The position numbers and the translations under genes were made by a program. The notes beneath the pieces were generated by a model. That model searched no databases. It was not told the DNA's origin and saw nothing but the letters and a program-made list of their open reading frames with translations. Positions 27,698 through 61,240 of a stretch of DNA of 64,000 nt are shown piece after piece. How positions within the stretch are numbered: position 1 is the first letter of the stretch; every line of letters begins with the position of its first letter. Source of the stretch: a virus (lineage: Duplodnaviria > Caudoviricetes); IMG/VR virus record IMGVR_UViG_3300028591_000011, positions 41,736 to 105,735 of that record; one strand, given 5' to 3'.

Positions 27698-28737
27698 AAT
27701 TTTAACGTTTCAGAACCATTGCCTTCATAATATTCTCTACTATGCTCCCACTTACCTGTAGCCTGATGCCAAGCAATATGTTCTAATGCATGCTCTATCG
27801 TATCAGCGTGTGGATAGATTTGATCTTTTGTAAATTTAAATACTCGTATTTCATTAGAACCAGTTGTGTCGATTCCAATAATATACCATTCGTGAGACCA
27901 ATCTTTCAAATCTTCTCCTAACTCATACTTTAGATACCAGCCGACAGCCATTGTGTAATACATCAGCTGTCTACAATAGTCATATTGCTCTACACTATCT
28001 TCAAAGTGCCACAGCTTTTGTGTAGTCTTTAAGTCGTAGATAATAGCCTTCTTATTATTAAAATCAAGAGTAAGACCATCGAGTAACGATTTACAAGCTA
28101 TTGGCATCTCACCATAGAATTCCCAGTTTATATGGAATTCGTGATAATCAGATATTGGCGATATCCCAGGATCTCCAGTCACCGGAATAAAGTCTTCTAT
28201 ATCTAAACCACGTACTCTACTGTTACGTGGCCATATGATATCTGCTGCAAGTTTGTGAGATATAATGTTATGCTTGATTTTTTCAAGCATTTTGGCATCC
28301 CAAGGACTAATCATAGTTCTTCCATCATTTGCTTTCAGGAAATCTATGTAATCTTTCAACGTAGAGGCTATTTTAAGGCCTTCTGACAGCATTTTGTCCT
28401 CGGACCTTCCTGCTGTACTGTAAGCATCTTTAAAAGCGCTCAGAATGGCTCTATTAGGCTCTATTTCTGTTGAAAATGCTAACGCCTGACAGAACTTCTC
28501 CTGTTGTACAGAAGAAGGTCTACTTTTGTCCCAGACTACATAGTCTTTTTTGAACTCTTCAGGCTGCAGAATATATTCGTGGATCATTGTTCCACGCTCC
28601 AACACAGCATTCTTTTCTTCTGGTGGAGGATCTGTTAGCATTTTATGTAAATAGGCTGGTCCCTTTTGTAGAAACCAGCCTATATTACTATTGGAAATTC
28701 TACTACGGTCTTCGTAGTATGGAATAGAAATGTCCAT
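27694..28737 (-). CDS. PD-(D/E)XK exonuclease (RecE/exonuclease VIII, DUF3799-like)
   Basis: ISNS..., GTMIHEYIL, KSLLD, IYDLKTT and YCRQLMYY motifs. Confidence 0.8.
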   Translation of the reverse strand: MDISIPYYEDRSRISNSNIGWFLQKGPAYLHKMLTDPPPEEKNAVLERGTMIHEYILQPEEFKKDYVVWDKSRPSSVQQEKFCQALAFSTEIEPNRAILSAFKDAYSTAGRSEDKMLSEGLKIASTLKDYIDFLKANDGRTMISPWDAKMLEKIKHNIISHKLAADIIWPRNSRVRGLDIEDFIPVTGDPGISPISDYHEFHINWEFYGEMPIACKSLLDGLTLDFNNKKAIIYDLKTTQKLWHFEDSVEQYDYCRQLMYYTMAVGWYLKYELGEDLKDWSHEWYIIGIDTTGSNEIRVFKFTKDQIYPHADTIEHALEHIAWHQATGKWEHSREYYEGNGSETLKL

Positions 28738-31624: not shown

Positions 31625-32230
31625 TCAAAATGGCAGGTCGTCAGCACCTGTAGAGTCTGCAGTCACCGGAGCGGCTGTTGTACCGAGCGGATCGTCTTCC
31701 TTATCTGGCTGGACGGGACGCTCCAGAAGATCGTTCTTCCAAAGCTTAATCTGAGACTCTTCCACACTCATAGGTTCAACAAAAACACCAAGAGAGCTAA
31801 CTTTCGTATAACCCTTCTTATCGTAAACAACCTTAAGACGCATCGGTGCAAGATTTGCTAGGTTTTCAGCATAAGCTTTTGTTAACACATTCTTTACCCA
31901 ATTAATCATCTCTGCAAAGGACGAACCTTCGAAATCCGGATGACTCCCAGTTGCTGCATCTATAACCTGTAGAATACGACCAAACTGCTGATTATCACGA
32001 TTCTGAAGATCTTCATCAGTCTTAATCCACATATTCTTCTCGTTCTTCCATTCAGTCATAGTTGCTGTCTGACCCTGTTCATTCTCAAAGATTATCTCTA
32101 AGAAATCCCGACCTTGAGATGTCTTGTTTACATTAACTTCTTTCAAAGTCACGTTTTCGTTGATGCCTACAGGCATGTATGAGCTTGTAAACTCACTATT
32201 GTTTATTGTTGCTGTTTTTGTGCTATACAT
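31625..32230 (-). CDS. Single-stranded DNA-binding protein (crAss-type)
   Basis: OB-fold-like N-terminus, acidic tail ending DDLPF, located between the recombinase and primase. Confidence 0.7.
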   Translation of the reverse strand: MYSTKTATINNSEFTSSYMPVGINENVTLKEVNVNKTSQGRDFLEIIFENEQGQTATMTEWKNEKNMWIKTDEDLQNRDNQQFGRILQVIDAATGSHPDFEGSSFAEMINWVKNVLTKAYAENLANLAPMRLKVVYDKKGYTKVSSLGVFVEPMSVEESQIKLWKNDLLERPVQPDKEDDPLGTTAAPVTADSTGADDLPF

Positions 32231-32235
32231 AATTC

Positions 32236-32976
32236 TTAGTCTTTCTTATAAATTCTATCCCAATAGGTTGTTATAGTTCCATTCTCATCTCCTGTGGCAA
32301 TGATGATGTCTTTACCTGCAATATGGCGAGCTCTTGCTTCCATAATTGTTCCATCTCCTCCGGATTTGAATGAGATATGTGTTTCGTTATCTTTTCGGTA
32401 CACATATCCAACAGCATCCGCCATTCCGCAAATGATTTTTCCCAATTTTCCGACGAGGTCGATTTCTTTTGCGTTAATCTCTTCGCCTTCTTTATCGGTG
32501 ATACTATCTTTGACATGTCCTACTAAAATAAATTCGTCACAAAGTTCTTTAAACATATCAATGACCTTTTTAACAGCATCTCTTAGATACTTGTAACCTG
32601 CTCCACGGGCGAGTGTAGTAACGTCATTTCCTTTCCAGTTCTTGCCTAATTCGGTTTGCCTGTAAAGGGTGCACGCGTAACTCATACAAATATCTTCAAG
32701 ACGTGTAGCATTGTCAATTGTTATGTGTTTATAGAAGTTATGTCCAACCTCCGCATTCTTAGCTCTAATCGCTTGTGCAATCTCACCGAGATCGTTTATT
32801 GTTCGAGCTTGTATTGCCATAGCATCTAAGAATAGAGAACCACCTTCTAAATCAATTATCAGATTATTCTCTAACTGTGCTAAGCAACTTGTCTTACCAG
32901 ATTTTGGCAATCCGTATAAGACTAAATACGTAGGGTTTACAGAAACAGCTTTTACTTTTCCAGTTGGTAAAGTCAT
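32236..32976 (-). CDS. AAA_24/Sak4-like P-loop ATPase (recombination)
   Basis: YGLPKSGKT, IIDLEGG, ITIDN, ILVGH, ADAVGY. Confidence 0.8.
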   Translation of the reverse strand: MTLPTGKVKAVSVNPTYLVLYGLPKSGKTSCLAQLENNLIIDLEGGSLFLDAMAIQARTINDLGEIAQAIRAKNAEVGHNFYKHITIDNATRLEDICMSYACTLYRQTELGKNWKGNDVTTLARGAGYKYLRDAVKKVIDMFKELCDEFILVGHVKDSITDKEGEEINAKEIDLVGKLGKIICGMADAVGYVYRKDNETHISFKSGGDGTIMEARARHIAGKDIIIATGDENGTITTYWDRIYKKD

Positions 32977-33007
32977 AGGCTCTATTAGGCTCTAAATTGT
33001 TTTTTAA

Positions 33008-33524: not shown

Positions 33525-34451
33525 TTAACATTCGACCAAATTGTTATACATTAGTTCGTTTTCGAATTCTAAAATACAAGGTTTACCTGCATCTCTATTT
33601 TTTAACATGTGCATATATACCTTGTTTCTGACTGGTAAGTGATTTGGTCCGTACTCCTGTATATTTAACAATTCTGGTCTATGTATTACAAGCACATAAT
33701 CGCTGGCTTGAAATATAGCATCAGATGAAGACAAGTCACTACGCATTGGATAGTGACTCATCGGATTGTTTATCCTTTCAGAAGCTTCGATGTTTCTATT
33801 CATCTGTGCAATCTGTATGATCGAAGTAAATGGTAGCTTTTTAAGCTGTATAAACTCTCGTTCCAATTCACTTATAGTCTCTATTACAGAGCCTATTTGC
33901 TTTGTTAATAAAGCATGATCATATATGATTACAAAATGTTTACCAGTACCTTTAACATACTGATTATAAAAACTTCTTATAACTTCACCTACTTGCATGG
34001 GAGTCATCGGGTTGTCTACAAAGTAGATTGGATACTCTTTTAGCGAGTTGGAAACAGCAATGACTTTTCTGAACGTATCGTCATCGAGGCTCGTTTCCGA
34101 GCTATACAAAGTCGAAGTCGTTTTCTTGAGCTTATTAGAAAGCGTCCTTCCAACTTGCCTAAATCCAACCATCTCTAACGAGAAAGTAAGTACAATTATA
34201 TCTTCTTCAGGATTTAAATCAATCAAATCAGTTTGAACCAAATTAGCCCAACTACTTTTACCACTACCGGAAATTCCAGCTATGGTCATAACGGTATTTG
34301 GTTCAATACCTCCCATACACTGTGAATTAAACTTCTTCCAACGAGTTTTCAAAGATACAATATTTTTGTCTCTTCGTCCCTCTATATAGTTTATAGCTTC
34401 TTGAGCTACTACAGACATTGGTCTTACTATATTAGATAAGTTCTGTTCCAT
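33525..34451 (-). CDS. dnaB: DnaB-like replicative helicase
   Basis: AGISGSGKS, FSLEM, IIYDH, AQMNR, SDLSSSDAIFQASD, KNRDAG. Start taken at MEQNL. Confidence 0.9.
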   Translation of the reverse strand: MEQNLSNIVRPMSVVAQEAINYIEGRRDKNIVSLKTRWKKFNSQCMGGIEPNTVMTIAGISGSGKSSWANLVQTDLIDLNPEEDIIVLTFSLEMVGFRQVGRTLSNKLKKTTSTLYSSETSLDDDTFRKVIAVSNSLKEYPIYFVDNPMTPMQVGEVIRSFYNQYVKGTGKHFVIIYDHALLTKQIGSVIETISELEREFIQLKKLPFTSIIQIAQMNRNIEASERINNPMSHYPMRSDLSSSDAIFQASDYVLVIHRPELLNIQEYGPNHLPVRNKVYMHMLKNRDAGKPCILEFENELMYNNLVEC

Positions 34452-34998
34452 AGCTGTTATAATTTTGCTTTGATTCATCTTTCATTTCATCTTCAATAGC
34501 TTCCCATTGACTACGTGTTAACCAATTCCACATGGTCATCATATAGCTTAGAGAACCTTCACGCATGCGTTTTGATATCTCATAATCGAGACACTTTATC
34601 AAATGCTCTGCCATTGCAGAACTCTTGCCGCATTTTGTATTGAAGAAGTGCCGACACTTATTTACATTAGCTCGTAAATAGCTCTTGCTGCCATCACTGC
34701 GCATTACATACACAGGGTACATGTCATAAAACAAATCAAAATAATCTTTAGCTGGTGCTATAGCTTCTTTTAACTGTTCTGTTGGCATATACGTGACAGA
34801 ATCACCTCTCTCGATCGAGGTGATCAAATTCATGTCGATTAAGCTTGATATTTCGTCATCACCAATAAGGCTGATAATCTGGTGGACGTCTTGATATTTG
34901 GGTTGATTCTTATCCAATACCAAGCTTAAAAAGAATAGCTGATTTAGATTGATACTTGGAAATTTATCCAAGATTTTGGTGTTTACTTCAATAATCAT
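34432..34998 (-). CDS. Putative replication initiator/helicase loader
   Basis: wHTH-like N-terminus, FDLFYDMYP motif typical of phage replication initiators, directly upstream of DnaB. Confidence 0.55.
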   Translation of the reverse strand: MIIEVNTKILDKFPSINLNQLFFLSLVLDKNQPKYQDVHQIISLIGDDEISSLIDMNLITSIERGDSVTYMPTEQLKEAIAPAKDYFDLFYDMYPVYVMRSDGSKSYLRANVNKCRHFFNTKCGKSSAMAEHLIKCLDYEISKRMREGSLSYMMTMWNWLTRSQWEAIEDEMKDESKQNYNSYGTELI

Positions 34999-35023
34999 AT
35001 AGGCTCTATTAGGCTCTAAATTA

Positions 35024-36883
35024 CTAAAATAATTCTAACTGTTGTTCAGCAAAGTCAGCAATTATCTTTTTGGCTTCACTGATATAGTAACGATAGTTAA
35101 TCTTTCGATCTTCTATCGGGCGATCATCAAACTTATTCAGGATTGTTACTCCTGACTTCGTTAACATATTAGACACTTTGTCAACGTCATCTCCATCTTG
35201 TTTAAACAGATATGGACCATCTGTACTTGCATAAAATCTATTGATACGTTGTACAGGTTTATCACCATGTATAACTTTGAACTTCTTATCTACTGCTTGT
35301 GACATTAAGAAATCCCGGATATCTCTATCCTTCTCAATAAATTCTGTCACTGGTATTTTGTGGACAAAGTATGCCATGACTGCTTTCGGTATTACTACCG
35401 GAGCTAATCCTTTACCAAGTTTTGTCTTAGTAATAAACATACCTTTTTCTTCTATCTCACCATTTTTCAAGACACCAAAGTAGTCGTTGATGGCATATTG
35501 ATAGAATGCTTCGTACTCATCTACTTCAAAATTAAGTTGTGTGATTCGTTCCACCTTAGAGATGGCTTCCTGAATTCCTTCTTTAAAGCTGTTTTTAGCC
35601 TTGTAGACAACGCCATCAGTATTGACCTGAATAATTTCACATCCGAGGTCTAAAAGCCTGTCTACGAGCATTAAAAGGATTAGTTGACCGTTTATTCTAA
35701 TCTTAAAAACGTTGAACGGATCATACATCCAACTCACCTCCTGCTGCATTTTTCCGGTAGGAGAATTAAGCACGATCTTTAGAAACATATTCTTAATCTT
35801 TTGACCAGTACGTTTTGCTTCTACTCGTTCGCCGTAAAGCTCTTCGAATATATCGCAAAATAGTTTTCCCAAATGACGAGGTCCCCATTGATATTTAATC
35901 AGGAATGAGGGATACATGGACGTTACATCAGCATGTCCAATGTGCTCATCATCTCTTGGAAGGAATATCTTAGGTGTATGGATAGAATGTATCCCTCCTA
36001 CTCCTACAGAATATACCACATTCGAGAGAACAAACTTCTTCTCGTAGCTTTTGCGTTCCTTCGAGTATACTACATGTTTCTTCATATCCTCTAGAACGTC
36101 TTGTAACTTTGGATTTTTGTATTTTATAAATGGCAAGATGACGTCCTTCAATGTAATATAATCCATTGGCGAACGCCATTCCTTTATAACATTTTTAGGA
36201 ACACCAGACCTCTTGGAATATTCTTCCAAAAGAAAGGTTTCTGCCATTTTTACGGAGTCCATTGATAAACAATCGATTCCGTGTTCTTTTTCAATAAACA
36301 ATCGTAGTTCTATTTCTCCATTGAGCCTATTTAATAGCTCAGTAGTAGACTCTACGTCATTTACGTTATATGCAATCATTTCGTCTATATTTTCTTTCGG
36401 TAAGAATGCGTTAAAATCCCCGTCGTATTCTTGCACATTCTTATAATGCATTGTTACCTGCATCGTCTTAAGACCTACTCGTAATTTTCGACTAAACTGC
36501 ATAGTTAACAAGTCCATAGAGTAGAAGTATTTTGCATACCTCCACTTCTTTAACTTGTCTGCGTTTCCATCTTCGTCTTCCACTATGCATTTTGATAAAT
36601 TGTACAAAGATTGTGTTATACGCACATAAGAGTATTGGTTTAACTTATCTTTGTATTCTATCATATAATTTACGATAGTATCATCGTAATGCTTGTTATT
36701 ATATCCACAGAACATTCTGCTTTTATCTAAAAAGAAGTCAACCAGCTTGTCTAACTGGTTGACTCTTTCTGATATTTCGAACTTGAACATTTCATTCAAT
36801 TCCGTATCATAACAACAACAATGGAAAACATTAGGAAACACCTCAATGTCAAAGACATTTACTGAAGCGTTCTTAATAATCAT
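35024..36883 (-). CDS. DNA polymerase family B
   Basis: Exo FDIEV and GYNNKHYD; DVTSMYPS, KIVLNSPTGK, QVNTDG. Ends TAG-TAA. Confidence 0.92.
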   Translation of the reverse strand: MIIKNASVNVFDIEVFPNVFHCCCYDTELNEMFKFEISERVNQLDKLVDFFLDKSRMFCGYNNKHYDDTIVNYMIEYKDKLNQYSYVRITQSLYNLSKCIVEDEDGNADKLKKWRYAKYFYSMDLLTMQFSRKLRVGLKTMQVTMHYKNVQEYDGDFNAFLPKENIDEMIAYNVNDVESTTELLNRLNGEIELRLFIEKEHGIDCLSMDSVKMAETFLLEEYSKRSGVPKNVIKEWRSPMDYITLKDVILPFIKYKNPKLQDVLEDMKKHVVYSKERKSYEKKFVLSNVVYSVGVGGIHSIHTPKIFLPRDDEHIGHADVTSMYPSFLIKYQWGPRHLGKLFCDIFEELYGERVEAKRTGQKIKNMFLKIVLNSPTGKMQQEVSWMYDPFNVFKIRINGQLILLMLVDRLLDLGCEIIQVNTDGVVYKAKNSFKEGIQEAISKVERITQLNFEVDEYEAFYQYAINDYFGVLKNGEIEEKGMFITKTKLGKGLAPVVIPKAVMAYFVHKIPVTEFIEKDRDIRDFLMSQAVDKKFKVIHGDKPVQRINRFYASTDGPYLFKQDGDDVDKVSNMLTKSGVTILNKFDDRPIEDRKINYRYYISEAKKIIADFAEQQLELF

Positions 36884-36907
36884 AGGCTCTATAGGCTCTT
36901 TAGTTAG

Positions 36908-36999
36908 TGAGAGTAGGGAGACTTAAACTCCCTAGATGATCTTACCACGCATAGCAGTCATCATCCTTTAGGTACAATCCGCAGACTGACATTACTCTC
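36908..36999 (-). ncRNA. tRNA-like element upstream of PolB
   Basis: GAGAGTA/TACTCTC 7-bp acceptor plus discriminator A and T-arm GGGAG-TTTAAGT-CTCCC; the interior hairpins are non-canonical. Confidence 0.55.
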
Positions 37000-37008
37000 T
37001 AAGCAGAC

Positions 37009-37926
37009 CTATGCTGCTTTTGGTAGTATTATCCTACCAGTTTTTCTTTTGTGATCTCTCAAATTCGTACACACTAAGTTGTTACTCTTTTTGTGTACTT
37101 TATTTGTGATCTTTTGGGCTGTTTTTAGTAACTTTGACGTTTCTGGCTTTAGGCTGTTTACCCGATGTCCTTCTCCGTCTATATCTTTAATGTTTGCTAC
37201 TATTTTCTCTTCAAATTTGTGGTCGTCTATTTTGAATCGACCCGTAAGTGGTAACTTGTCATATATAGAGATAACGAAATCTCTTATACGTTCGGTTGCC
37301 GTCTCTCGCATTTGTTTCCATGGGATAAGATATTCGTTTTCGAACATATCTTGTTGCATTCCGTCTTCTTTTATCGGACACGGATTCTTTCTTTCCCACT
37401 TTGCTAACTTATGCTGTACAAGTTTTTCCCAGTACTCAACCTGGTTCATCTTCTTTTGAGTATAATCAGGATATTCTGACTTGTTGTCATACTTTTCTAA
37501 AGTTACATACAGTAGCTTATTACCAGCAATCCTTTCAAATACTGGTTTTAATCCACGCTTACGCTTTCTAAGACTTTTTGTCTGCTTTCCGTCTATAGGT
37601 TCCCAACTATGGTCTTGCATGTGGAACCTCATTCCAAGATTGTCAGGTTTATCAGATATACGTAAATATCTTCCATGCTGCCTTACTTCAAATGTTCCTC
37701 CGTCTGATTTAGGTAAAAATATAGTACCAAACCCTTCCTGTGCATATAGTTTATCTCTAAACTTTGTCACTTTTATAGGTTCGCTACCTTTATTATACTC
37801 AAAATCTACGAGTTCTGCCTTTCCAAACTTACGCTCGTGGTTCTTTTTATCGAACTGCTTAGAACGAGCTCTAAGGATCGCTACTTTTCTTCTACGAGCC
37901 TTAATACGAATGTTGCTATGTCCCAT
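37009..37926 (-). CDS. Highly basic hypothetical protein ending LPKAA
   Basis: 305-aa K/R-rich ORF with a TAG stop. Confidence 0.75.
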   Translation of the reverse strand: MGHSNIRIKARRRKVAILRARSKQFDKKNHERKFGKAELVDFEYNKGSEPIKVTKFRDKLYAQEGFGTIFLPKSDGGTFEVRQHGRYLRISDKPDNLGMRFHMQDHSWEPIDGKQTKSLRKRKRGLKPVFERIAGNKLLYVTLEKYDNKSEYPDYTQKKMNQVEYWEKLVQHKLAKWERKNPCPIKEDGMQQDMFENEYLIPWKQMRETATERIRDFVISIYDKLPLTGRFKIDDHKFEEKIVANIKDIDGEGHRVNSLKPETSKLLKTAQKITNKVHKKSNNLVCTNLRDHKRKTGRIILPKAA

Positions 37927-37951
37927 ATTACTTTATGTATTATGTTAAACA

Positions 37952-38695
37952 TCATGCAGCCTTCTTAAGTTGGTTAGACTTCTTCTTCTTGATCGCTACT
38001 GTCTCTGCTTTTTCACGTTTAGCGGTTATCAGACGGATTTTCTTCTGAAGTTTAGCAAACGCTTTTCCTCGATTTTTCTTTCGATTCTTTGCCGAATCTT
38101 TATTAGCCTTCTTTCTGGCAAGTTTTGCGGCAGCAGCAGCTTTCTTGTGCTCTGCCTTTGTCAGAGGTTTCTTTGCTTTCTTGGGAGGATCTTTTGCAGG
38201 CAAGACGGACGGCTGTTTCTCTGCATACGGATGTATCTTAGTCCCTTCTGGCATAAGCTCTCGTATCTTCTTCAAAAGCTCCTGATCTCCCTTTACGTAG
38301 AGATGGCTATCTGAAGACATCAACACTTCTATTTTGTTGTTCTTCAGCATTTCCATGATCATCTTCTTGTTCCCCTTCTGGAACAGTACTAATATCATGT
38401 ACTTCTTTGGTGCATCAAGCTGTTCGCACAACTTTTCAACTAATTTCTTTACGTGCTCTTCTGGAATTCCCATGCGTGCTGCTCTACGCTTCAGTGCAGC
38501 TATACGGAATTCACGATATTGCTTCTCTCGAGCTTCACGTCGCTTCTTCTTATCGACTAAGTTCTTCACTTTGCCTGTTGGCACGTTTGTCTTCTCAACA
38601 GTGTTAAGCTTCTTATAAACGAACGGGTGCTTATTTTCTGACTTAGGAGTCTGACCCTTCTGGGCAGTGTCTACCTTATAATTCTTTCTACTCAT
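37952..38695 (-). CDS. Highly basic hypothetical protein ending LKKAA
   Basis: 247-aa Lys-rich ORF with ATTATCAAA leader. Confidence 0.75.
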   Translation of the reverse strand: MSRKNYKVDTAQKGQTPKSENKHPFVYKKLNTVEKTNVPTGKVKNLVDKKKRREAREKQYREFRIAALKRRAARMGIPEEHVKKLVEKLCEQLDAPKKYMILVLFQKGNKKMIMEMLKNNKIEVLMSSDSHLYVKGDQELLKKIRELMPEGTKIHPYAEKQPSVLPAKDPPKKAKKPLTKAEHKKAAAAAKLARKKANKDSAKNRKKNRGKAFAKLQKKIRLITAKREKAETVAIKKKKSNQLKKAA

Positions 38696-38889: not shown

Positions 38890-39432
38890 TTACGCAGCAA
38901 GATACTCCTTGATGTCCGAAATATTGTCAGACAACTCAATAGAAGACTCATTATTAAACTTCTCGAGCGCTGCATCATACTTATTTGCAGCGAGCTGCTG
39001 ATCATGAATCAGCTGTGCAATCTTAGCACTCGTAAACGTTTCCTTTTTACCAGTACCATTTGCACCCTTCTTTGCCTTCTGTGTAGGATTAATAGTAGGA
39101 ATCATCTTCAACAGAGTAATATCCTCCTTTGCCTCACATGCCGCAAAGATTGCGTAATAATTGGTTTTCTTAAATTTATCATAATCAAACGATGTAATAC
39201 CAATATTCAAATACTGGAGCATACCCTTGATTATAATACGCTTGTTTCGAAGCTGCTGTATCAGATTATACAGAGCCTTAAGATCCTTACCGGAACCAAG
39301 ACCAGCTTTAATAGCCTTAGTCGATATCACATTCTCACCACGAATAATGTGGCTATACTTAGTTATCTCAGCATCAATATTCTTCTTGATACTAATGATG
39401 TTACTTGCATTCAACTTTATTGATTTAGTCAT
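38890..39432 (-). CDS. Hypothetical protein ending YLAA
   Basis: 180-aa ORF. Confidence 0.75.
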   Translation of the reverse strand: MTKSIKLNASNIISIKKNIDAEITKYSHIIRGENVISTKAIKAGLGSGKDLKALYNLIQQLRNKRIIIKGMLQYLNIGITSFDYDKFKKTNYYAIFAACEAKEDITLLKMIPTINPTQKAKKGANGTGKKETFTSAKIAQLIHDQQLAANKYDAALEKFNNESSIELSDNISDIKEYLAA

Positions 39433-40919: not shown

Positions 40920-40929
40920 TTCTAAATCC

Positions 40930-43085
40930 TTTTTGAAATCGTCTTTGATAAACCAACGATTTAGATTAAACTTTGCCCTCTCGGCTCGGGCGTTGCCGTA
41001 AAATATATAAATGTGGATGCTTACACAGTTTTTATTTCTTCAGTTGCTGTTCTAATGGGAAGCACGTTTTTCTCGATGATTAGTTATACTTCTATATTCC
41101 TCGGCCCAATACGTTTAGGTATGGCAAATGTGAAGCTCAACTCGTATAACGAGGATTCAACGGTAGAATCATCCATGCTCATCATCATCAAGATTTGTTA
41201 AAACTTTAAATGCTGAATGTGTATATCCAAATACTAAACCTGTTTTAAGCATAATGTTTATTTTTCGTGAAACATACAACATTCATCCGTCAAAGGCTCT
41301 TATATAGGCTCAGGAAGGCTCTGAAGAGAGTTCCAGTGCTGAGATGTTTGTTGTCGAATTTAGTTTTTACCCAGGGTTTCGCCTGGCCATAAGAGTCTGT
41401 GAATATTTCTTCTTTAGTGTATTTTTGAATCTTATTCACATAAATACTTCTGATTATTTTACAAGCCTAACAGCAGTATGAACGTGCTTGTTTCCTGTTT
41501 CAATAGCTCCATAACTATTGTTTTTACGTGAGGAGTACGTTTCATTATCGGACGGCCCTATGACGTATCTGTGCGTCGGCCCTACGGCTTTGTTTTTTAT
41601 CTTGGCAAGTGCTTGCCTCATTATTTATAGTGCACGAATACTGGAGGGATTCCACCTCATACGCTATAAGATTTATCACCCACTTTACCTTCTTTGTACA
41701 CACTCCGAGACAGGGAGTAGTAGTTCCTGCATACGATTATATCACTGCGTTTAATCAGTCGGTAAAGCTGCCTTGCATCGTTTGCGTATATTGCTTCATA
41801 GTTCGGACGCACCACTTAGATTTGCTGTCTAAGCTTCTGGCCTACTATCTTGCTACTTAATTCTCAGGAACGGTTGGCACTCGATTTCCAGACGTGAGGC
41901 GCTCACAAGCGTTACAAACGGAGCCTTTCTCTTCCCCAGCTGGCGACATCAATTTTTGTTTGACATGTTAATTATTATTTGGTTTCCTCTGTATTTATTT
42001 TCATATGACTATCTTGTTTAATAGAGTTATAATGACGCAATAGTATCTAGGCTTACTACTCCTCAGGGACTATTGTTTTGAATGTAACAATCTAAACATC
42101 ATATTATCTTCATACTTGGACGCCAGCGACTTATTAATATACTGGAATATATATTCTTCGGATCGACCAGCGTTAATCTTGTTATTTGTTTGGCTGTCAA
42201 GGAGCCATCTACTACATAGCATTTCCTCTTACATGTAGTTCAATTCTATAGCGAAACCTTGCTAAAGGGCTCTACTAAAGTCTTATCAGTCTTTGAACGC
42301 GGACTCTTAACGCGACGCACATATCCATGCGTTAGGTTTTACCCCTTATCTTCCTGCATCGAAGATCCAGTCATTTTACTTTTATATACCGCATAAACGA
42401 CTAAAGCCTGGCGGTCATCTTCAACATTCTTTCCTCAGTACCCCATCCCTGGACACTCTAAGGTGTTGCAGCCTTGCATATCACCAAACTACCATTTAAT
42501 ACTCTCATAAGTTCTTTTGCAAGACACTTTTTCGAATCGAACGGCAAGGGCTTCTTCAAGGACCGTAGTTACGGTACAGCGTAGATATTTTAAACCTTCT
42601 ACTAGGTATATGAACTCAGATAGTTTTCATCCCTCAATGCTGGTTTTGGAGACCAGTGACACTAGACTAAGCAAATGAAACATCAGTATAGCTTTTGGCC
42701 TACTATACTGTTCAACTCGTGTTACGTTATACAGAACCTCTATGTTTCTCTCGAAAGGCTGCATGTCCGATACGTATTCGTTTACAACTCGTGTGCGTCT
42801 TCCTTACTAATAACCCACACTTCATGAGTCTGGCAAAGCATAAAGAACTCTGCTGGTATTTATTAGTGTTAGGGTTGAATAAACGCTGACCCTACTTACT
42901 GCAAGCTTTTCTACCATGTAGTATGTCATGGAACTTACAGCATTTCATTCTACCTTTTGGTTAGTCTATGGAGATAGACATACATATTCTCGAATCAAGT
43001 TATACTATTTCGCACCTGGGCTAATGAGACCCATCTGAAATGTGCTGACCGGATTGCCTACGGCTGGAAAGCCGGTAAAGCAGTA
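40930..43085 (-). ncRNA. ~2.1-kb candidate large structured non-coding RNA region
   Basis: No credible ORF on the sense strand in either code; dense short hairpins and internal repeats. Strand inferred from the flanking genes. Confidence 0.55.
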
Positions 43086-43088
43086 TCT

Positions 43089-43574
43089 TTACCGACCTTC
43101 CTCCGCGGAGTGATTATCGTTTTCTGATGAATATACAACCTGACCGTCGACAGTCAAGCTGATGCTGCTTCGCTTAGAGTTCTGCAGCTCACCATGAGAT
43201 TGCTCCTCACGATCTCCAGAAATTTTGTTTTTAACAGCAATACCGTCCAGCTTCCCTGGAATGGGCATAGGACAGTATACAGTATCTGTCGTACTTCTAC
43301 GCTTCTGAACGTATACATACTTTGGTTTTACCTTGAACACAGTATCCCGTAGTACTACTGTGTCCGTTTTCATACTCTCTGTACTCGTGCCCTGACTACT
43401 CTGAGTCACGAGCGGCATCCCTACGTTCTGCAATCCCTGTAAGGGCTGCAAATGCATGGGCGGGGATGCGATTGCTACCTGATGGCCTGGGAACACTGGT
43501 GCGTCCATGAGAGCCATAAAAGCTCCACATACCATAAATATAAGGCAGCAAACAACTGTTGTAAAACGTTTCAT
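43089..43574 (-). CDS. Signal-anchored/secreted hypothetical protein
   Basis: MKRFTTVVCCLIFMVCGAFMAL N-terminus; DTVVLRDTV motif common in Bacteroidota exported proteins. Confidence 0.65.
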   Translation of the reverse strand: MKRFTTVVCCLIFMVCGAFMALMDAPVFPGHQVAIASPPMHLQPLQGLQNVGMPLVTQSSQGTSTESMKTDTVVLRDTVFKVKPKYVYVQKRRSTTDTVYCPMPIPGKLDGIAVKNKISGDREEQSHGELQNSKRSSISLTVDGQVVYSSENDNHSAEEGR

Positions 43575-45503: not shown

Positions 45504-46064
45504 TTAAACTTTTAGTTGTTTTTTAAGTTTGCGTCTTGTACGCGCTAATCTGGCTTTTATTGTACCAGTGGGCATCTTTAACGCTTTACTAATCTCTTCT
45601 ACTGTCATACTATTCTCATAGAACAGTTCGAATACCTTACGAGTGGATTCTGGTAGTTCATTAAATTGATACAGAAGCTGTTCGTATGTCATCCGGTTGA
45701 CAAGGTCGTTTTCATACGATTCACTTATCAATGAAGGTGCTTGTCTAACATCTTTATCGTTAAGAGTTCCTGCATCATGTTTAATTGATCTGAGATAGTC
45801 TACAGCAGTTCGATTAGTTATTATTCTTAACCATCCTCCAAAGGAGTCGTAAGTTTTGAATGTCGAGAGGTTTTCATACACTTTTAAGAATACTTCATTA
45901 GCTACAAATTTAGCTTCATCTGTATCTTTTAAATATCCTTTAAGGATTCCTTCTACAAATGGTTTATACTTGTAGAATAGTGTATTAAAGGCTTTAATGT
46001 CACCGCCTTGTGCTCTTTTGATAAGTGCTATTTCCTTTTTTGTAATTTTAGGTACAGCTTCCAT
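45504..46064 (-). CDS. ECF-type RNA polymerase sigma-70 factor
   Basis: GDIKAFNTLF, EVFLKVY, SFGGWLRIITNRTAVDYLR (region 2); LPESTRKVFEL, EEISKALKMPTGTIKARLARTR (region 4). Confidence 0.92.
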   Translation of the reverse strand: MEAVPKITKKEIALIKRAQGGDIKAFNTLFYKYKPFVEGILKGYLKDTDEAKFVANEVFLKVYENLSTFKTYDSFGGWLRIITNRTAVDYLRSIKHDAGTLNDKDVRQAPSLISESYENDLVNRMTYEQLLYQFNELPESTRKVFELFYENSMTVEEISKALKMPTGTIKARLARTRRKLKKQLKV

Positions 46065-46161
46065 ATCAAACAAATTTAACCGGTTATTAAGGTGTCACTC
46101 CTGTAACAGACGGCGCTGTTTGTGGGCTGCCGGAATACCAATCCGGATTAGGTTGTCAGCC

Positions 46162-46596
46162 CTAGAACGGTAAATCTTCTGTACTAATTTCGTAGTGCAG
46201 ATTCAATACGTTCTTTGTAAGATTTGAATGTAGAATATAATACTTATCGGCTTGCAATCTTCCGCTTTCTTTCAATTTTGTAAGCATACTACATATTATA
46301 CGCAAATGTACACCTACAGTTTTATAAGATATTTTTCCTAATTTTAAAAGAATATTGTGATTTGCCCAACGAACTACTCTCATTAGCTCGTAATCATCAT
46401 GTATATATTCAAACAATTCTTCATCTTCTTCAGGATTTAGAACAAATAACCTAGTGCAATCTTCAATTCCCTTTACGCCTTGATTGTATGCGATACGCAA
46501 CTGGTTGAATATTTCACTTGGTGTACTTTGTTCCGTAAGATTCACGATCTTTGCCTCATTTAAAGGCTTTAAATAATCAAAAAATACACTAAACAT
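46162..46596 (-). CDS. Hypothetical protein with DLPF C-terminus
   Basis: 144-aa ORF; TAG stop directly after DLPF. Confidence 0.7.
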   Translation of the reverse strand: MFSVFFDYLKPLNEAKIVNLTEQSTPSEIFNQLRIAYNQGVKGIEDCTRLFVLNPEEDEELFEYIHDDYELMRVVRWANHNILLKLGKISYKTVGVHLRIICSMLTKLKESGRLQADKYYILHSNLTKNVLNLHYEISTEDLPF

Positions 46597-47196: not shown

Positions 47197-47336
47197 GCTC
47201 CCACTTAGGTAGGGAGCACACCCGATCACGCCGCCTCCTTGAGGCCAGTGTAATCAACAACGTTTATGTTGCCAGTTAATTTATATCAAAGCGCTTAATG
47301 TATTTACTTCCGCTGCTGTCTAATACATTCAGGCCC
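47197..47336 (-). ncRNA. ssrA: Permuted tmRNA, coding piece (tag GNINVVDYTGLKEAA)
   Basis: 5' end GGGCCTGAATGTATTAGACAGCAGC; resume context TTAACT-GGC; tag ORF 47273-47226 ends Ala-Ala-TGA; followed by hairpin GCTCCC..GGGAGC. Confidence 0.85.
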
Positions 47337-47498
47337 TTATAGTTCATGAAAGAATGCATTAGCATTACTTTCGTAATCATCACCTCCATAATAACCTTCT
47401 ACAGTACCTAATGGAGATATTGTACCTTTTTTAAGAAGATCTTCAAAAGCTACGGCATCTTTATCGTTTACTTTATATAACACTATATATCCTTTCAT
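47337..47498 (-). CDS. 53-aa protein encoded in the tmRNA intervening segment
   Basis: ATG 47498 to TAA 47339-47337, which abuts G1 of the tmRNA coding piece. Confidence 0.6.
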   Translation of the reverse strand: MKGYIVLYKVNDKDAVAFEDLLKKGTISPLGTVEGYYGGDDYESNANAFFHEL

Positions 47499-47512
47499 GA
47501 TTTTGAATTTTG

Positions 47513-47570
47513 TGGACCTGGAGGGTATGTCTCCCTCGTCCAAACAGCTTACCTCATACACGCTAAGATT
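47513..47570 (-). ncRNA. ssrA: Permuted tmRNA, acceptor piece (5' boundary uncertain)
   Basis: TTAGCGTGTATGAGGTAAGCTGTTTGGAC-GAGGG-AGACATA-CCCTC-CAGGTCC-A. CAGGTCC pairs with GGGCCTG, giving a G3-U70 wobble and discriminator A (Ala identity). Confidence 0.85.
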
Positions 47571-47963
47571 GGAAAAGAATGAGAGGTGGTATTTCCTACT
47601 GATTTATAGAAGGCAATAGAGTGCCATTAACCTTCAACAGCAGCCTCGCCCCAGCACTCTCTGGTCTGACCCACTACGGCTCTTCTCTCATTCTTTATAT
47701 TTTTCTTAGTCCAACAGTTTATTCTGGGACACGCTAAGATTTCTTTAGAGATGAATGCTTGTGACAAATTCTGAATATAACATTGTTAATATTCTATAGC
47801 ATTCAATAGTGAACTCTACAATGATCAGTCGTAGAATTCGATTTAAGGCTATTTACAGGCTCTACAATCGCTTATTACAGCTTTTGTGGTCAGCTAATCC
47901 ACTCAAGTACATAAAAACGATTGTAGAGCTTTATTTGGCCTTCAAAACAAACAGTGATACAAT

Positions 47964-48258
47964 GGCTCTAATAGGCTCTTGTGTATATGTTTCCAGCATT
48001 CTTGATATACTGTGCAGGTTTAACTCTCATATTATTTACCCGGCTCTAATAGGCTCAAACACAGCAATGTGATCTAAATGGGATATAGTTTATTCTCCGT
48101 ATCTTCAGAGCTCGACATCCGAACTGGCTCTAATAGGCTCTTGTTCGACATGTTAATTCATGTGCCCGAGATAACCCCATCTCTCGACTTTAAAATACGT
48201 AATATTCGTAGTCCCTATGGATCCGTGATCTCATTCCTATTGGCTCTAATAGGCTCTT
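47964..48258 (-). repeat. Array of four GAGCCTATTAGAGCC repeats
   Basis: Copies at 47964, 48042, 48126 and 48242; near-identical motif precedes ATGs at 32977, 35001 and 36884. Confidence 0.85.
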
Positions 48259-48292
48259 AAGGATGGATGTCGAATTTATACGTCTGTACGGA

Positions 48293-48769
48293 TTACCAGC
48301 GAGAATCCCACTCATAAGAGTAATAGCCCGGGAAGCCCTCACGCAGCTCGCGTACCTGCTTGTCAAACTTCTCGTTACTCTTGTTTATGGCCTCACGCTC
48401 TTCCTTACAGATCTTCTTCCATTCGGCTTCGTACTCGTTGGGGGTAAGCTTGCTCGAAGTAAGCTTATCCAACAACTCCTTGGAAGCATCCAATGAAGCC
48501 TTCATGGCATGCTCCTCACGACGATTCTTATTGAACAGAAGCTTCTTCTTCAGGTTGATATACCTCGCCATATTCTTACAGCGGCGGTACTCACGAATCT
48601 TCCGTTCTTTCTCTTCCTCCTCGTCCTTGAGGTCGCCGAGTGCGGCAATATCCTCATCAATGAGGTTACCTTTTCGGATCTCTTCCTCTACAGAAAGATC
48701 CTCGTTTACTACTTGAGCCTGTGCTGATACACGCTCCTCGGCTGACTTGTTTTTCTTGTCTTTTCCCAT
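48293..48769 (-). CDS. Hypothetical coiled-coil protein
   Basis: 158-aa charged ORF with ATTATCAAAA leader. Confidence 0.75.
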   Translation of the reverse strand: MGKDKKNKSAEERVSAQAQVVNEDLSVEEEIRKGNLIDEDIAALGDLKDEEEEKERKIREYRRCKNMARYINLKKKLLFNKNRREEHAMKASLDASKELLDKLTSSKLTPNEYEAEWKKICKEEREAINKSNEKFDKQVRELREGFPGYYSYEWDSRW

Positions 48770-49417: not shown

Positions 49418-49961
49418 TGTATTCTACTAGTTTTGTTTCTATTCTGTATTTTTTGCCTTCAATAATAGTATCTCGTAGATTTACAGAGAGTGTAGTCTCT
49501 TTAGGTATTTCAACCCTTGTAACACGTGGTCCCTCCAGCACCGTATCCTTCTTTTCAGCTATGTCTATACTTCGTGGGAGAGCTGTATAAATGTCGATAT
49601 TTTTTGTATATTCTGTTACTAAATCTCGTCGCTTTATACTAGGTCCACGCTTTAAACACACTGACGCTACGTTTCTGATAGTTTCATCATCCATTGACAT
49701 GAATACACTGTCAATACGAGCGTTCTCGTTTTTGCATTTCCTATACTGTAGGATTTGCGATGTGGATGTGAACTCAGGGTTGATGATGTGATCTACGTAC
49801 TCGGCGAAGAGTACGGAATCATTCTTGACAGTCTTTTCTGTTGACTGTCCAAATGGCAACAAGTGTCTGTCGCCTTTACATGATGAGCATAAGACGACAC
49901 TCACCATGACCACAAGGAGCAAAACTAAATATGCTCCGATGATTGGAATTTTTCTTTTCAT
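49410..49961 (-). CDS. Putative lipoprotein
   Basis: MKRK, hydrophobic core, then LCSSC lipobox. Confidence 0.7.
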   Translation of the reverse strand: MKRKIPIIGAYLVLLLVVMVSVVLCSSCKGDRHLLPFGQSTEKTVKNDSVLFAEYVDHIINPEFTSTSQILQYRKCKNENARIDSVFMSMDDETIRNVASVCLKRGPSIKRRDLVTEYTKNIDIYTALPRSIDIAEKKDTVLEGPRVTRVEIPKETTLSVNLRDTIIEGKKYRIETKLVEYNE

Positions 49962-61076: not shown

Positions 61077-61151
61077 TGCTCCATGGTGTAGCGGTAGCAC
61101 GGGAGGCTCTAACCCTCCAGGTCCGGGTTCGACTCGATGGTGGGGCGACCA
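61077..61151 (+). tRNA. Amber suppressor tRNA (anticodon CTA), Gln-type body
   Basis: TGCTCCA-TGGTGTAGCGGTAGCAC-G-GGAGG-CTCTAAC-CCTCC...TGGGGCG-A-CCA; anticodon at 61109-61111; irregular T-stem. Confidence 0.88.
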
Positions 61152-61153
61152 AT

Positions 61154-61240
61154 AACGAAAGTAGCTCAAAGTGGTAGAGCGGCGACACTTATAGACAGTC
61201 AATCGTATGCTGCGGGTTCAAGTCCCGTCTTTCGTTACCA
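61154..61240 (+). tRNA. Atypical tRNA with 8-bp acceptor and expanded anticodon loop (identity undetermined)
   Basis: AACGAAAG/CTTTCGTT-A-CCA, normal D and T arms, anticodon region GCGA-CACTTATAGACAGTCAA-TCGT. Confidence 0.65.

Follow-up and report, generated by a model that had tools for sequence, protein, structure and literature searches.

A crAss-like phage of the gut/rumen places the same tiny bulged RNA stem-loop at the start codons of its DNA-replication genes and, four times over, in a conserved structured non-coding RNA, an arrangement that points to an undescribed circuit for the control of translation. The window analysed here is a stretch of 64,000 nucleotides, bases 41736-105735 of a 105.7-kb virus record. 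The DNA polymerase it encodes is 75% identical to that of crAssphage cr272_1 (NC_055903; Suoliviridae, Oafivirinae, Buhlduvirus) and 45-68% identical to those of other Suoliviridae. Genes from about 27 to 59 kb of the window lie on the minus strand, and GC skew follows this. Identified genes in this block include a DnaB-like helicase, an AAA_24 (Sak4-like) ATPase, a Toprim primase, an AAA ATPase, a PD-(D/E)XK exonuclease and an ECF-type sigma factor.

An earlier note on this sequence had described a tandem AGAGCC motif, present as a four-copy array upstream of a tmRNA and as single copies at the starts of replication genes. To assess whether this observation was real, we searched for the exact 15-mer GAGCCTATTAGAGCC, which occurs four times on the minus strand, and for one-mismatch copies, of which there are three, at 35002-35016, 32978-32992 and 28447-28461. 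The total of 7 matches compares with 0.07 expected by chance, and 0 of 100 shuffles reached 7. A 14-nt form, GAGCCTATAGAGCC, lies before the polymerase gene. All copies are on the minus strand, which is the coding strand of the 27-59 kb block, and there are none elsewhere in the 105.7-kb genome. The observation holds, and the reported variant at 41295-41321 is real and lies in a large ORF-free stretch (Table 1). Some details need qualification, however. ARAGORN and Rfam at gathering threshold found no tmRNA, only a tRNA-Met, and it was only at an E-value threshold that a permuted-tmRNA model gave a weak match 3' of the array. The gene that had been called PolB matched only the PHROG 'DNA polymerase' annotation and, weakly, an NCBIfam Pol II model (E 1e-3), and so its polymerase family is not settled. 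The copy inside the exonuclease gene is probably a coding coincidence.

Table 1. Positions, within the window, of the motif copies, the elements of the non-coding RNA and the neighbouring features.
Position	Strand	Feature	Observations
48293..48769	-	Gene for a 158-aa charged, predicted helical protein immediately 5' of the non-coding RNA; a weak candidate for the reader	Syntenic and homologous across subfamilies (E 2e-13 and 2e-7 to cr124_1 gp61 and cr4_1 gp85)
48232..48265	-	Hairpin 1 of the non-coding RNA	Motif at 48242-48256, at the tip of an outer stem (CAUCCU / AGGAAUG); orthologous hairpin in 13 other genomes
48148..48163	-	Small conserved hairpin of the same RNA, hexaloop AAUUAA closed by G-C (ACAUG...CAUGU)	Stem covaries in 10-14 genomes (e.g. 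GAAUG/CAUUC, ACCUG/CAGGU, AAACG/CGUUU)
48120..48147	-	Hairpin 2	Motif at 48126-48140; 5-bp outer stem CGAAC/GUUCG; inner pairs covary (100% paired)
48008..48066	-	Hairpin 3 domain	Motif at 48042-48056, enclosed by a long-range 7-bp helix (UGCUGUG / CACAGUA); compensatory changes between alignment columns 327-333 and 402-408
47957..47986	-	Hairpin 4	Motif at 47964-47978; outer stem AUACA/UGUAU; preceded by the conserved linker AUAUCAAGAAUG (47997-48008)
47226..47567	-	Candidate permuted tmRNA just 3' of the non-coding RNA	RF04321, 32.1 bits, E 2.2e-4, below its cut-off of 47; tmRNA annotated at the same spot in NC_055903 and NC_055899
47118..47192		tRNA-Met	ARAGORN and Rfam at gathering threshold
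46162..46596	-	Protein with an SSB-like acidic tip	Ends in EDLPF
45504..46073	-	ECF-type sigma factor	Sigma70_r2 and r4_2; conserved across Suoliviridae
41295..41321	-	Motif copy inside the ORF-free stretch	GAGCC-UUCCU-GAGCC plus a third GAGCC; in six relatives (five genomes and cr272_1) the orthologous copy sits in a hairpin whose 5-bp stem covaries (CGUCC/GGACG, CGCUC/GAGCG, CAUCC/GGAUG, CGUUC/GAACG)
40920..43090		ORF-free stretch of about 2.2 kb	No ORF over 55 aa on either strand
38890..39432		Conserved 180-aa protein	Predicted all-helical
37009..38695	-	Two very basic proteins just upstream of the polymerase gene	247 aa with pI 10.4 and 72 K+R; 305 aa with pI 9.9
36900..36950	-	Hairpin with a 7-nt loop (GGGAG...CUCCC)	Just upstream of the polymerase leader
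36881..36898	-	Motif (36885-36898) 1 nt before the ATG (36881-36883) of the DNA polymerase gene 35024-36883	Same position in about 40 relatives carries GAACC-N2-4-GAGUC; other lineages carry GCAUC or GUAUC forms
34983..35032	-	Long hairpin pairing the 3' end of the polymerase ORF with the AUG and first codons of the 188-aa gene (34432-34998)	Motif (35002-35016) at its tip, 3 nt before the ATG; 16-17 enclosing pairs, several G.U; conserved in all genomes examined; G1-C13 becomes U-A in two lineages
32974..32992	-	Motif (32978-32992) 1 nt before the ATG of the AAA_24/Sak4-like ATPase gene 32236-32976	In two relatives the ATG lies inside the motif loop; in cr124_1 the lineage's GUAUC form abuts the same gene
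31625..32230	-	Gene starting MYSTK, with an SSB-like acidic tip	Ends in ADDLPF
28447..28461	-	Motif-like 15-mer inside the exonuclease CDS	Encodes E-P-N-R-A; the GAG and GCC codons are kept even in the GCAUC-allele genome, and the match breaks where R is K
61077..61240	+	Two adjacent tRNAs	Anticodon CUA (called tRNA-Pyl by ARAGORN), followed directly by an 87-nt tRNA with anticodon AUA

Comparison with relatives showed that the motif is not a tandem DNA repeat. In cr272_1 the AGAGCC pair is absent from the gene starts, but the same positions carry AGAACC-N3-4-GAGTC. Upstream of the polymerase ATG in 65 related loci the commonest form is GAACC-N2-4-GAGTC, and other forms are GCATC-TTA-GCATC, AGTATC-TT-AGTATC, GATTC-AC-GAAAC and GAGTC-AA-GAACC. 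The two apparent half-sites are the arms of a 13-15-nt RNA mini-hairpin of the form A-G1-x2-N3-N4-C5 / 2-5-nt loop / G9-x10-N11-N12-C13-A, in which N3N4 pairs with N11N12 (GC/GC, AC/GU, GU/AC, AU/AU, G.U wobble). G1-C13 and C5-G9 probably pair too, whereas the two x bases are left bulged and are always the same base as each other. The consensus with flanks is A-GARYC-N3(5)-GARYC-A-D-U. RNAfold on the native context indeed gives this fold with its two bulges, although the isolated mini-hairpin is only marginally stable (-2 to -3 kcal/mol).

Several lines of evidence support this pairing rule. In the window's genome and six relatives the pattern GARCC-N3-5-GAGYC occurs 6-11 times on the coding strand and 0-2 times on the other, whereas controls give 0-1. 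An unbiased count with the pattern GA-NN-C-N2-5-GA-NN-C, which does not require complementarity, gave 137 of 300 complementary hits on the coding strand, compared to 20 of 131 on the other strand and 27 of 190 in shuffles, where about 14% is expected. We then aligned the array region of 14 genomes from four genera and two subfamilies. All eight variable pairs change on both sides, 96.9% of cells are paired, against 10-30% when the partners are slid, and none of 500 shuffles reaches the observed covariation. The structure was derived from these same sequences, which favours it somewhat; however, the size of the effect and the unbiased count argue that it is real.

The element appears to act as RNA rather than as double-stranded DNA, since every copy is in the sense of transcription, G.U pairs are common and A.C pairs rare in both the mini-hairpin and the surrounding helices, and the loop length varies from 2 to 5 nt. 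The stem that hides the AUG of the 188-aa gene uses three G.U pairs, and this architecture is kept across the family, including in cr4_1 (NC_055893, Loutivirinae), where the tip is a different hairpin.

The array itself is a conserved structured RNA of Suoliviridae crAss-like phages. The stretch has only short plus-strand ORFs and evolves between relatives by indels and compensatory changes, so it is non-coding. The four copies, 78-116 nt apart, are orthologous hairpins in all 14 aligned genomes, each at the tip of an outer stem that changes by compensation between genomes. They are separated by conserved linkers (GAAUUAAC, GAUCAA and AUAUCAAGAAUG) and are accompanied by further covarying helices, namely the hexaloop hairpin, a helix upstream of hairpin 3 and the long-range helix around hairpin 3. 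The folded region has z = -2.6 against shuffles. No Rfam family matched over the array, either at gathering threshold or at E <= 1. One more copy of the motif lies in the ORF-free stretch; an unannotated gap sits at the same place in cr272_1, cr124_1 (NC_055899, Burzaovirus) and cr4_1, and the stretch may be a very large non-coding RNA.

To investigate whether the array and the gene-start copies are linked, we compared their alleles between lineages. The window's genome has GAGCC. A relative denoted G008, whose polymerase is 64% identical, has GCATC-TTA-GCATC three times in its array and once before the polymerase ATG. In cr124_1, GTATC-TTY-GTATC occurs four times just 5' of the annotated tmRNA, once in the large RNA gap, once abutting the Sak4-like ATG and once just after the sigma ATG. 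Bohxovirus and cr272_1 have GAGTC/GAACC arrays and matching polymerase starts. In contrast, cr4_1 has three GTATC copies in its array but no gene-start copy was detected in the 32 kb examined, so the non-coding RNA may have a primary role of its own. A profile of the sigma factor found 378 loci, and of 80 further loci fetched in this way 38 have four GUAUC copies and about 37 have GARYC copies with various cores. A search by pattern for more loci of the set denoted P0001 found only 3. Thus lineages carry their own allele (GARYC, GUAUC or GCAUC), which array and gene-start copies share. The paired core (N3N4) varies freely within a genome, whereas G1, C5, G9, C13 and the two bulged bases are fixed within a lineage, which is what one expects if a reader recognises shape plus those bases.

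With regard to the genes concerned, 28 of 106 sites lie within -12 to +14 nt of an ORF start, against a 3.5% background, and copies lie on, or 0-8 nt before, start codons. The set of genes differs between relatives and includes the polymerase, the 188-aa gene, the Sak4-like gene, the gene starting MYSTK, the AAA ATPase, the gene after the exonuclease and, in cr124_1, sigma. The product of the MYSTK gene is probably the phage SSB; its end recalls the acidic C-terminal tip of bacterial SSB, and in some relatives this gene carries the element at its start; a second protein of the window ends in a similar tip (Table 1).

We next searched for a protein that might read the element. Pfam, PHROG and NCBIfam scans of about 30 ORFs of the 27-50 kb block found no RNA-binding family, and neither a CsrA domain (PF02599) nor a RegA-family repressor was among the hits. 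The 158-aa protein always found directly 5' of the array is predicted to fold as a long helical bundle whose best matches, all weak, include domain I of ribosome recycling factor (rmsd about 1 Å over about 75 residues, E about 0.5), which is only a lead. The conserved 180-aa protein is predicted to be all-helical with no fold match, and the Atlas gave only a DUF6847 lead. PDB sequence searches with the polymerase and the 188-aa protein were uninformative. The two very basic proteins upstream of the polymerase gene match no family and are only patchily conserved. Association of allele with protein did not help either: no protein is closer than expected between the two GUAUC genomes of different subfamilies, and the closest A-allele/U-allele genome pair is only 63% identical in sigma, so any association is confounded by descent.

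Our best reading, held with moderate confidence only, is that the motif is the DNA image of an RNA operator made on the early/replication transcripts of a Suoliviridae crAss-like phage. What the sequences themselves establish is the pairing and its covariation, the strand specificity, the display of the motif at the hairpin tips of a conserved non-coding RNA next to a weak permuted-tmRNA match, the copy in the large ORF-free locus, the placement at start codons of replication genes and the lineage-specific allele shared within a genome. The remainder is inference from sequence alone, including the expression of the RNA, the existence and binding of a trans-acting reader, the direction of control and titration. 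Most simply, the reader would be a phage-encoded homodimeric RNA-binding protein holding the two identical bulged bases in equivalent pockets. Bound at a start codon, it would block (or possibly promote) 30S binding and so set the timing or dose of polymerase, helicase-loader-like protein, annealing ATPase and, in relatives, SSB-like protein, AAA ATPase and sigma factor. At the 188-aa gene, binding would lock a translationally coupled hairpin, and the four-site RNA would compete for the reader as a decoy or sponge, or assemble it. In favour of this reading, abundant early transcripts from long intergenic regions are reported for the crAss-like phage phi14:2 (bioRxiv 10.1101/2020.03.07.982082). 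The earlier note had proposed either a translational repressor titrated by a CsrB-like sponge RNA or origin iterons bound by the initiator, which would also autoregulate these genes. This interpretation is partly supported, in that the first alternative fits what can be tested by sequence, albeit with a bulged mini-hairpin in place of a tandem repeat and without evidence of repression or titration, whereas the second is not supported.

A processing signal is an unlikely alternative, but it has the same RNA-level support. In this view, a phage or host endoribonuclease would recognise the mini-hairpin, cut the polycistronic early transcript next to start codons and cut the non-coding RNA into pieces of roughly 80-115 nt, maturing or inactivating mRNAs in the manner of T4 RegB or T7 RNase III sites. 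The copies sit in very short intergenic gaps within operons and are regularly spaced in the non-coding RNA, and the early transcript is also punctuated by tRNA genes or tRNA T-arm remnants directly upstream of the polymerase start. However, a cut inside an element that contains the ATG, as in two relatives, or that lies just after it, as at the sigma gene of cr124_1, would destroy the message rather than mature it; the linkers and extra helices are conserved as one folded RNA; and no nuclease candidate was found. Slightly less likely still, the mini-hairpin may be a self-contained structural or docking module making a tertiary or RNA-RNA contact, with its primary role in the tmRNA-linked RNA and the large ORF-free RNA. 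The gene-start copies would then be secondary, for example tethering mRNAs to that RNA or tuning initiation in cis without a dedicated protein. The array is the most conserved part of the system, being present even in cr4_1, the element occurs in three kinds of RNA and no reader was found. Yet the loop, the obvious pairing surface, is free to vary, and the identical bulged bases switch together between A, U and C among lineages, which a co-evolving protein pocket predicts and RNA-RNA docking hardly explains. A more direct form of pairing, antisense or kissing contacts between array and gene-start spacers (CUAUUAG / CUAAUAG), was not kept in the nearest relative.

A DNA-level hairpin signal on the coding-sense strand is very unlikely, whether as a promoter for the virion RNA polymerase, as N4 uses DNA hairpins, giving leaderless or short-leader mRNAs, or as a single-strand priming signal. 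The hairpins are small, with 3-nt loops and strict orientation, and their distance of 0-8 nt from the ATG would fit short leaders. In phi14:2, moreover, no common motif was found upstream of early transcripts, and the virion enzyme transcribed denatured phage DNA in vitro (bioRxiv 10.1101/2020.03.07.982082). However, the ATG lies inside or upstream of the element in some genes, copies lie within tightly packed operons and in the middle of a large RNA locus, G.U pairs are frequent, and four tandem promoters 80-115 nt apart inside one conserved folded RNA are unlikely. A promoter reading in general also fared poorly, as the spacer between the arms is not conserved, ECF-type -35/-10 spacing does not fit and, by our reasoning, any transcription start would fall inside the ORFs. 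Finally, origin iterons or dsDNA operators bound by the initiator-like 188-aa protein can be all but set aside: although the arms in this genome look like direct repeats 10 bp apart, the clustered copies lie in a non-coding stretch and the 188-aa gene overlaps the DnaB-like helicase gene and so could encode a loader or initiator, in most relatives the arms differ (GAACC / GAGUC, and the swapped order) but stay complementary, the spacer varies, the copies are widely spaced in covarying hairpins on one strand, and GC skew switches at about 26 kb and 59 kb rather than at 48 kb.

Literature searches found no description of the element. Among known systems, CsrA/RsmA with the CsrB/RsmZ decoy RNAs of Gammaproteobacteria and Bacillus similarly displays a short motif in hairpins many times on a non-coding RNA, with the same motif overlapping the initiation regions of target mRNAs, and its reader is dimeric, as is inferred here. 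However, no CsrA-family protein was found among the ORFs scanned, the conserved bases lie in a bulged stem and the loop lacks GGA, there are four sites rather than 9-22, and this system is encoded by a virus in a host phylum that does not use Shine-Dalgarno pairing. The T4 RegA repressor (and likewise T4 gp32 and gp43 autoregulation) also controls a phage regulon of early/replication genes at the start codon through one RNA element shared by several mRNAs, but RegA sites are unstructured and AU-rich and no decoy RNA is known, whereas the present element is a structured, covarying mini-hairpin. In the replicase operators of MS2, Q-beta and PP7, a small hairpin with a bulged base lies at or over the AUG, and in MS2 two identical bases are read in equivalent pockets of a coat-protein homodimer, matching the x2 = x10 rule; those are ssRNA phages with a single operator, whereas here a dsDNA phage has 8-11 copies. 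Type III toxin-antitoxin (ToxIN) loci also place a protein gene next to an array of structured RNA units that could sequester a protein, but ToxI repeats are identical 36-nt units cut by the toxin nuclease, whereas here the units are non-identical hairpins within one folded RNA and the motif also occurs on target mRNAs.

The crAss-like phages are among the most abundant gut viruses, and almost nothing is known about how they regulate their genes after transcription. The element thus offers a concrete handle, namely a 13-nt RNA hairpin with clear covariation, a defined set of target genes (the replisome), a conserved partner non-coding RNA and natural variants that may differ in specificity. 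It would also show how translation can be controlled gene by gene in Bacteroidota, whose mRNAs lack Shine-Dalgarno sites, and the hairpin and its reader could become an orthogonal translational switch for Bacteroides engineering. If the decoy reading holds, this would be, to our knowledge, the first operator-plus-sponge circuit encoded by a phage. In its boldest form, which is possible but doubtful, a phage homodimer would read a two-fold pseudo-symmetric bulged mini-hairpin with a base pocket that has switched between A, U and C in different Suoliviridae lineages, gating translation of the replisome genes in a Csr-like circuit that is timed or buffered by a four-site decoy RNA made next to the phage's own tmRNA.

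The window also holds a second shared leader. (A)GTATTAAC / TTATTAAC lies about 20-25 nt upstream, and CATTATCAAA lies 0-3 nt before the ATG, of four minus-strand genes (ATGs at 49961, 48769, 45035 and 38695). The same CATTATCAAA-ATG occurs at five genes of cr272_1, and the AUUAAC part also precedes the polymerase start in relatives and forms the hexaloop hairpin of the non-coding RNA, so that it may be a promoter or leader class of its own. The slot held here by the 7-nt-loop hairpin upstream of the polymerase leader holds, in relatives (related loci L013, L021 and L077), a real tRNA gene (His, Leu, Ile) or a T-arm remnant (GGTTCGAnTCC), which suggests tRNA-type punctuation of the early transcript. 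The plus-strand tRNA with anticodon CUA is of the amber suppressor type and hints at TAG recoding of late genes.
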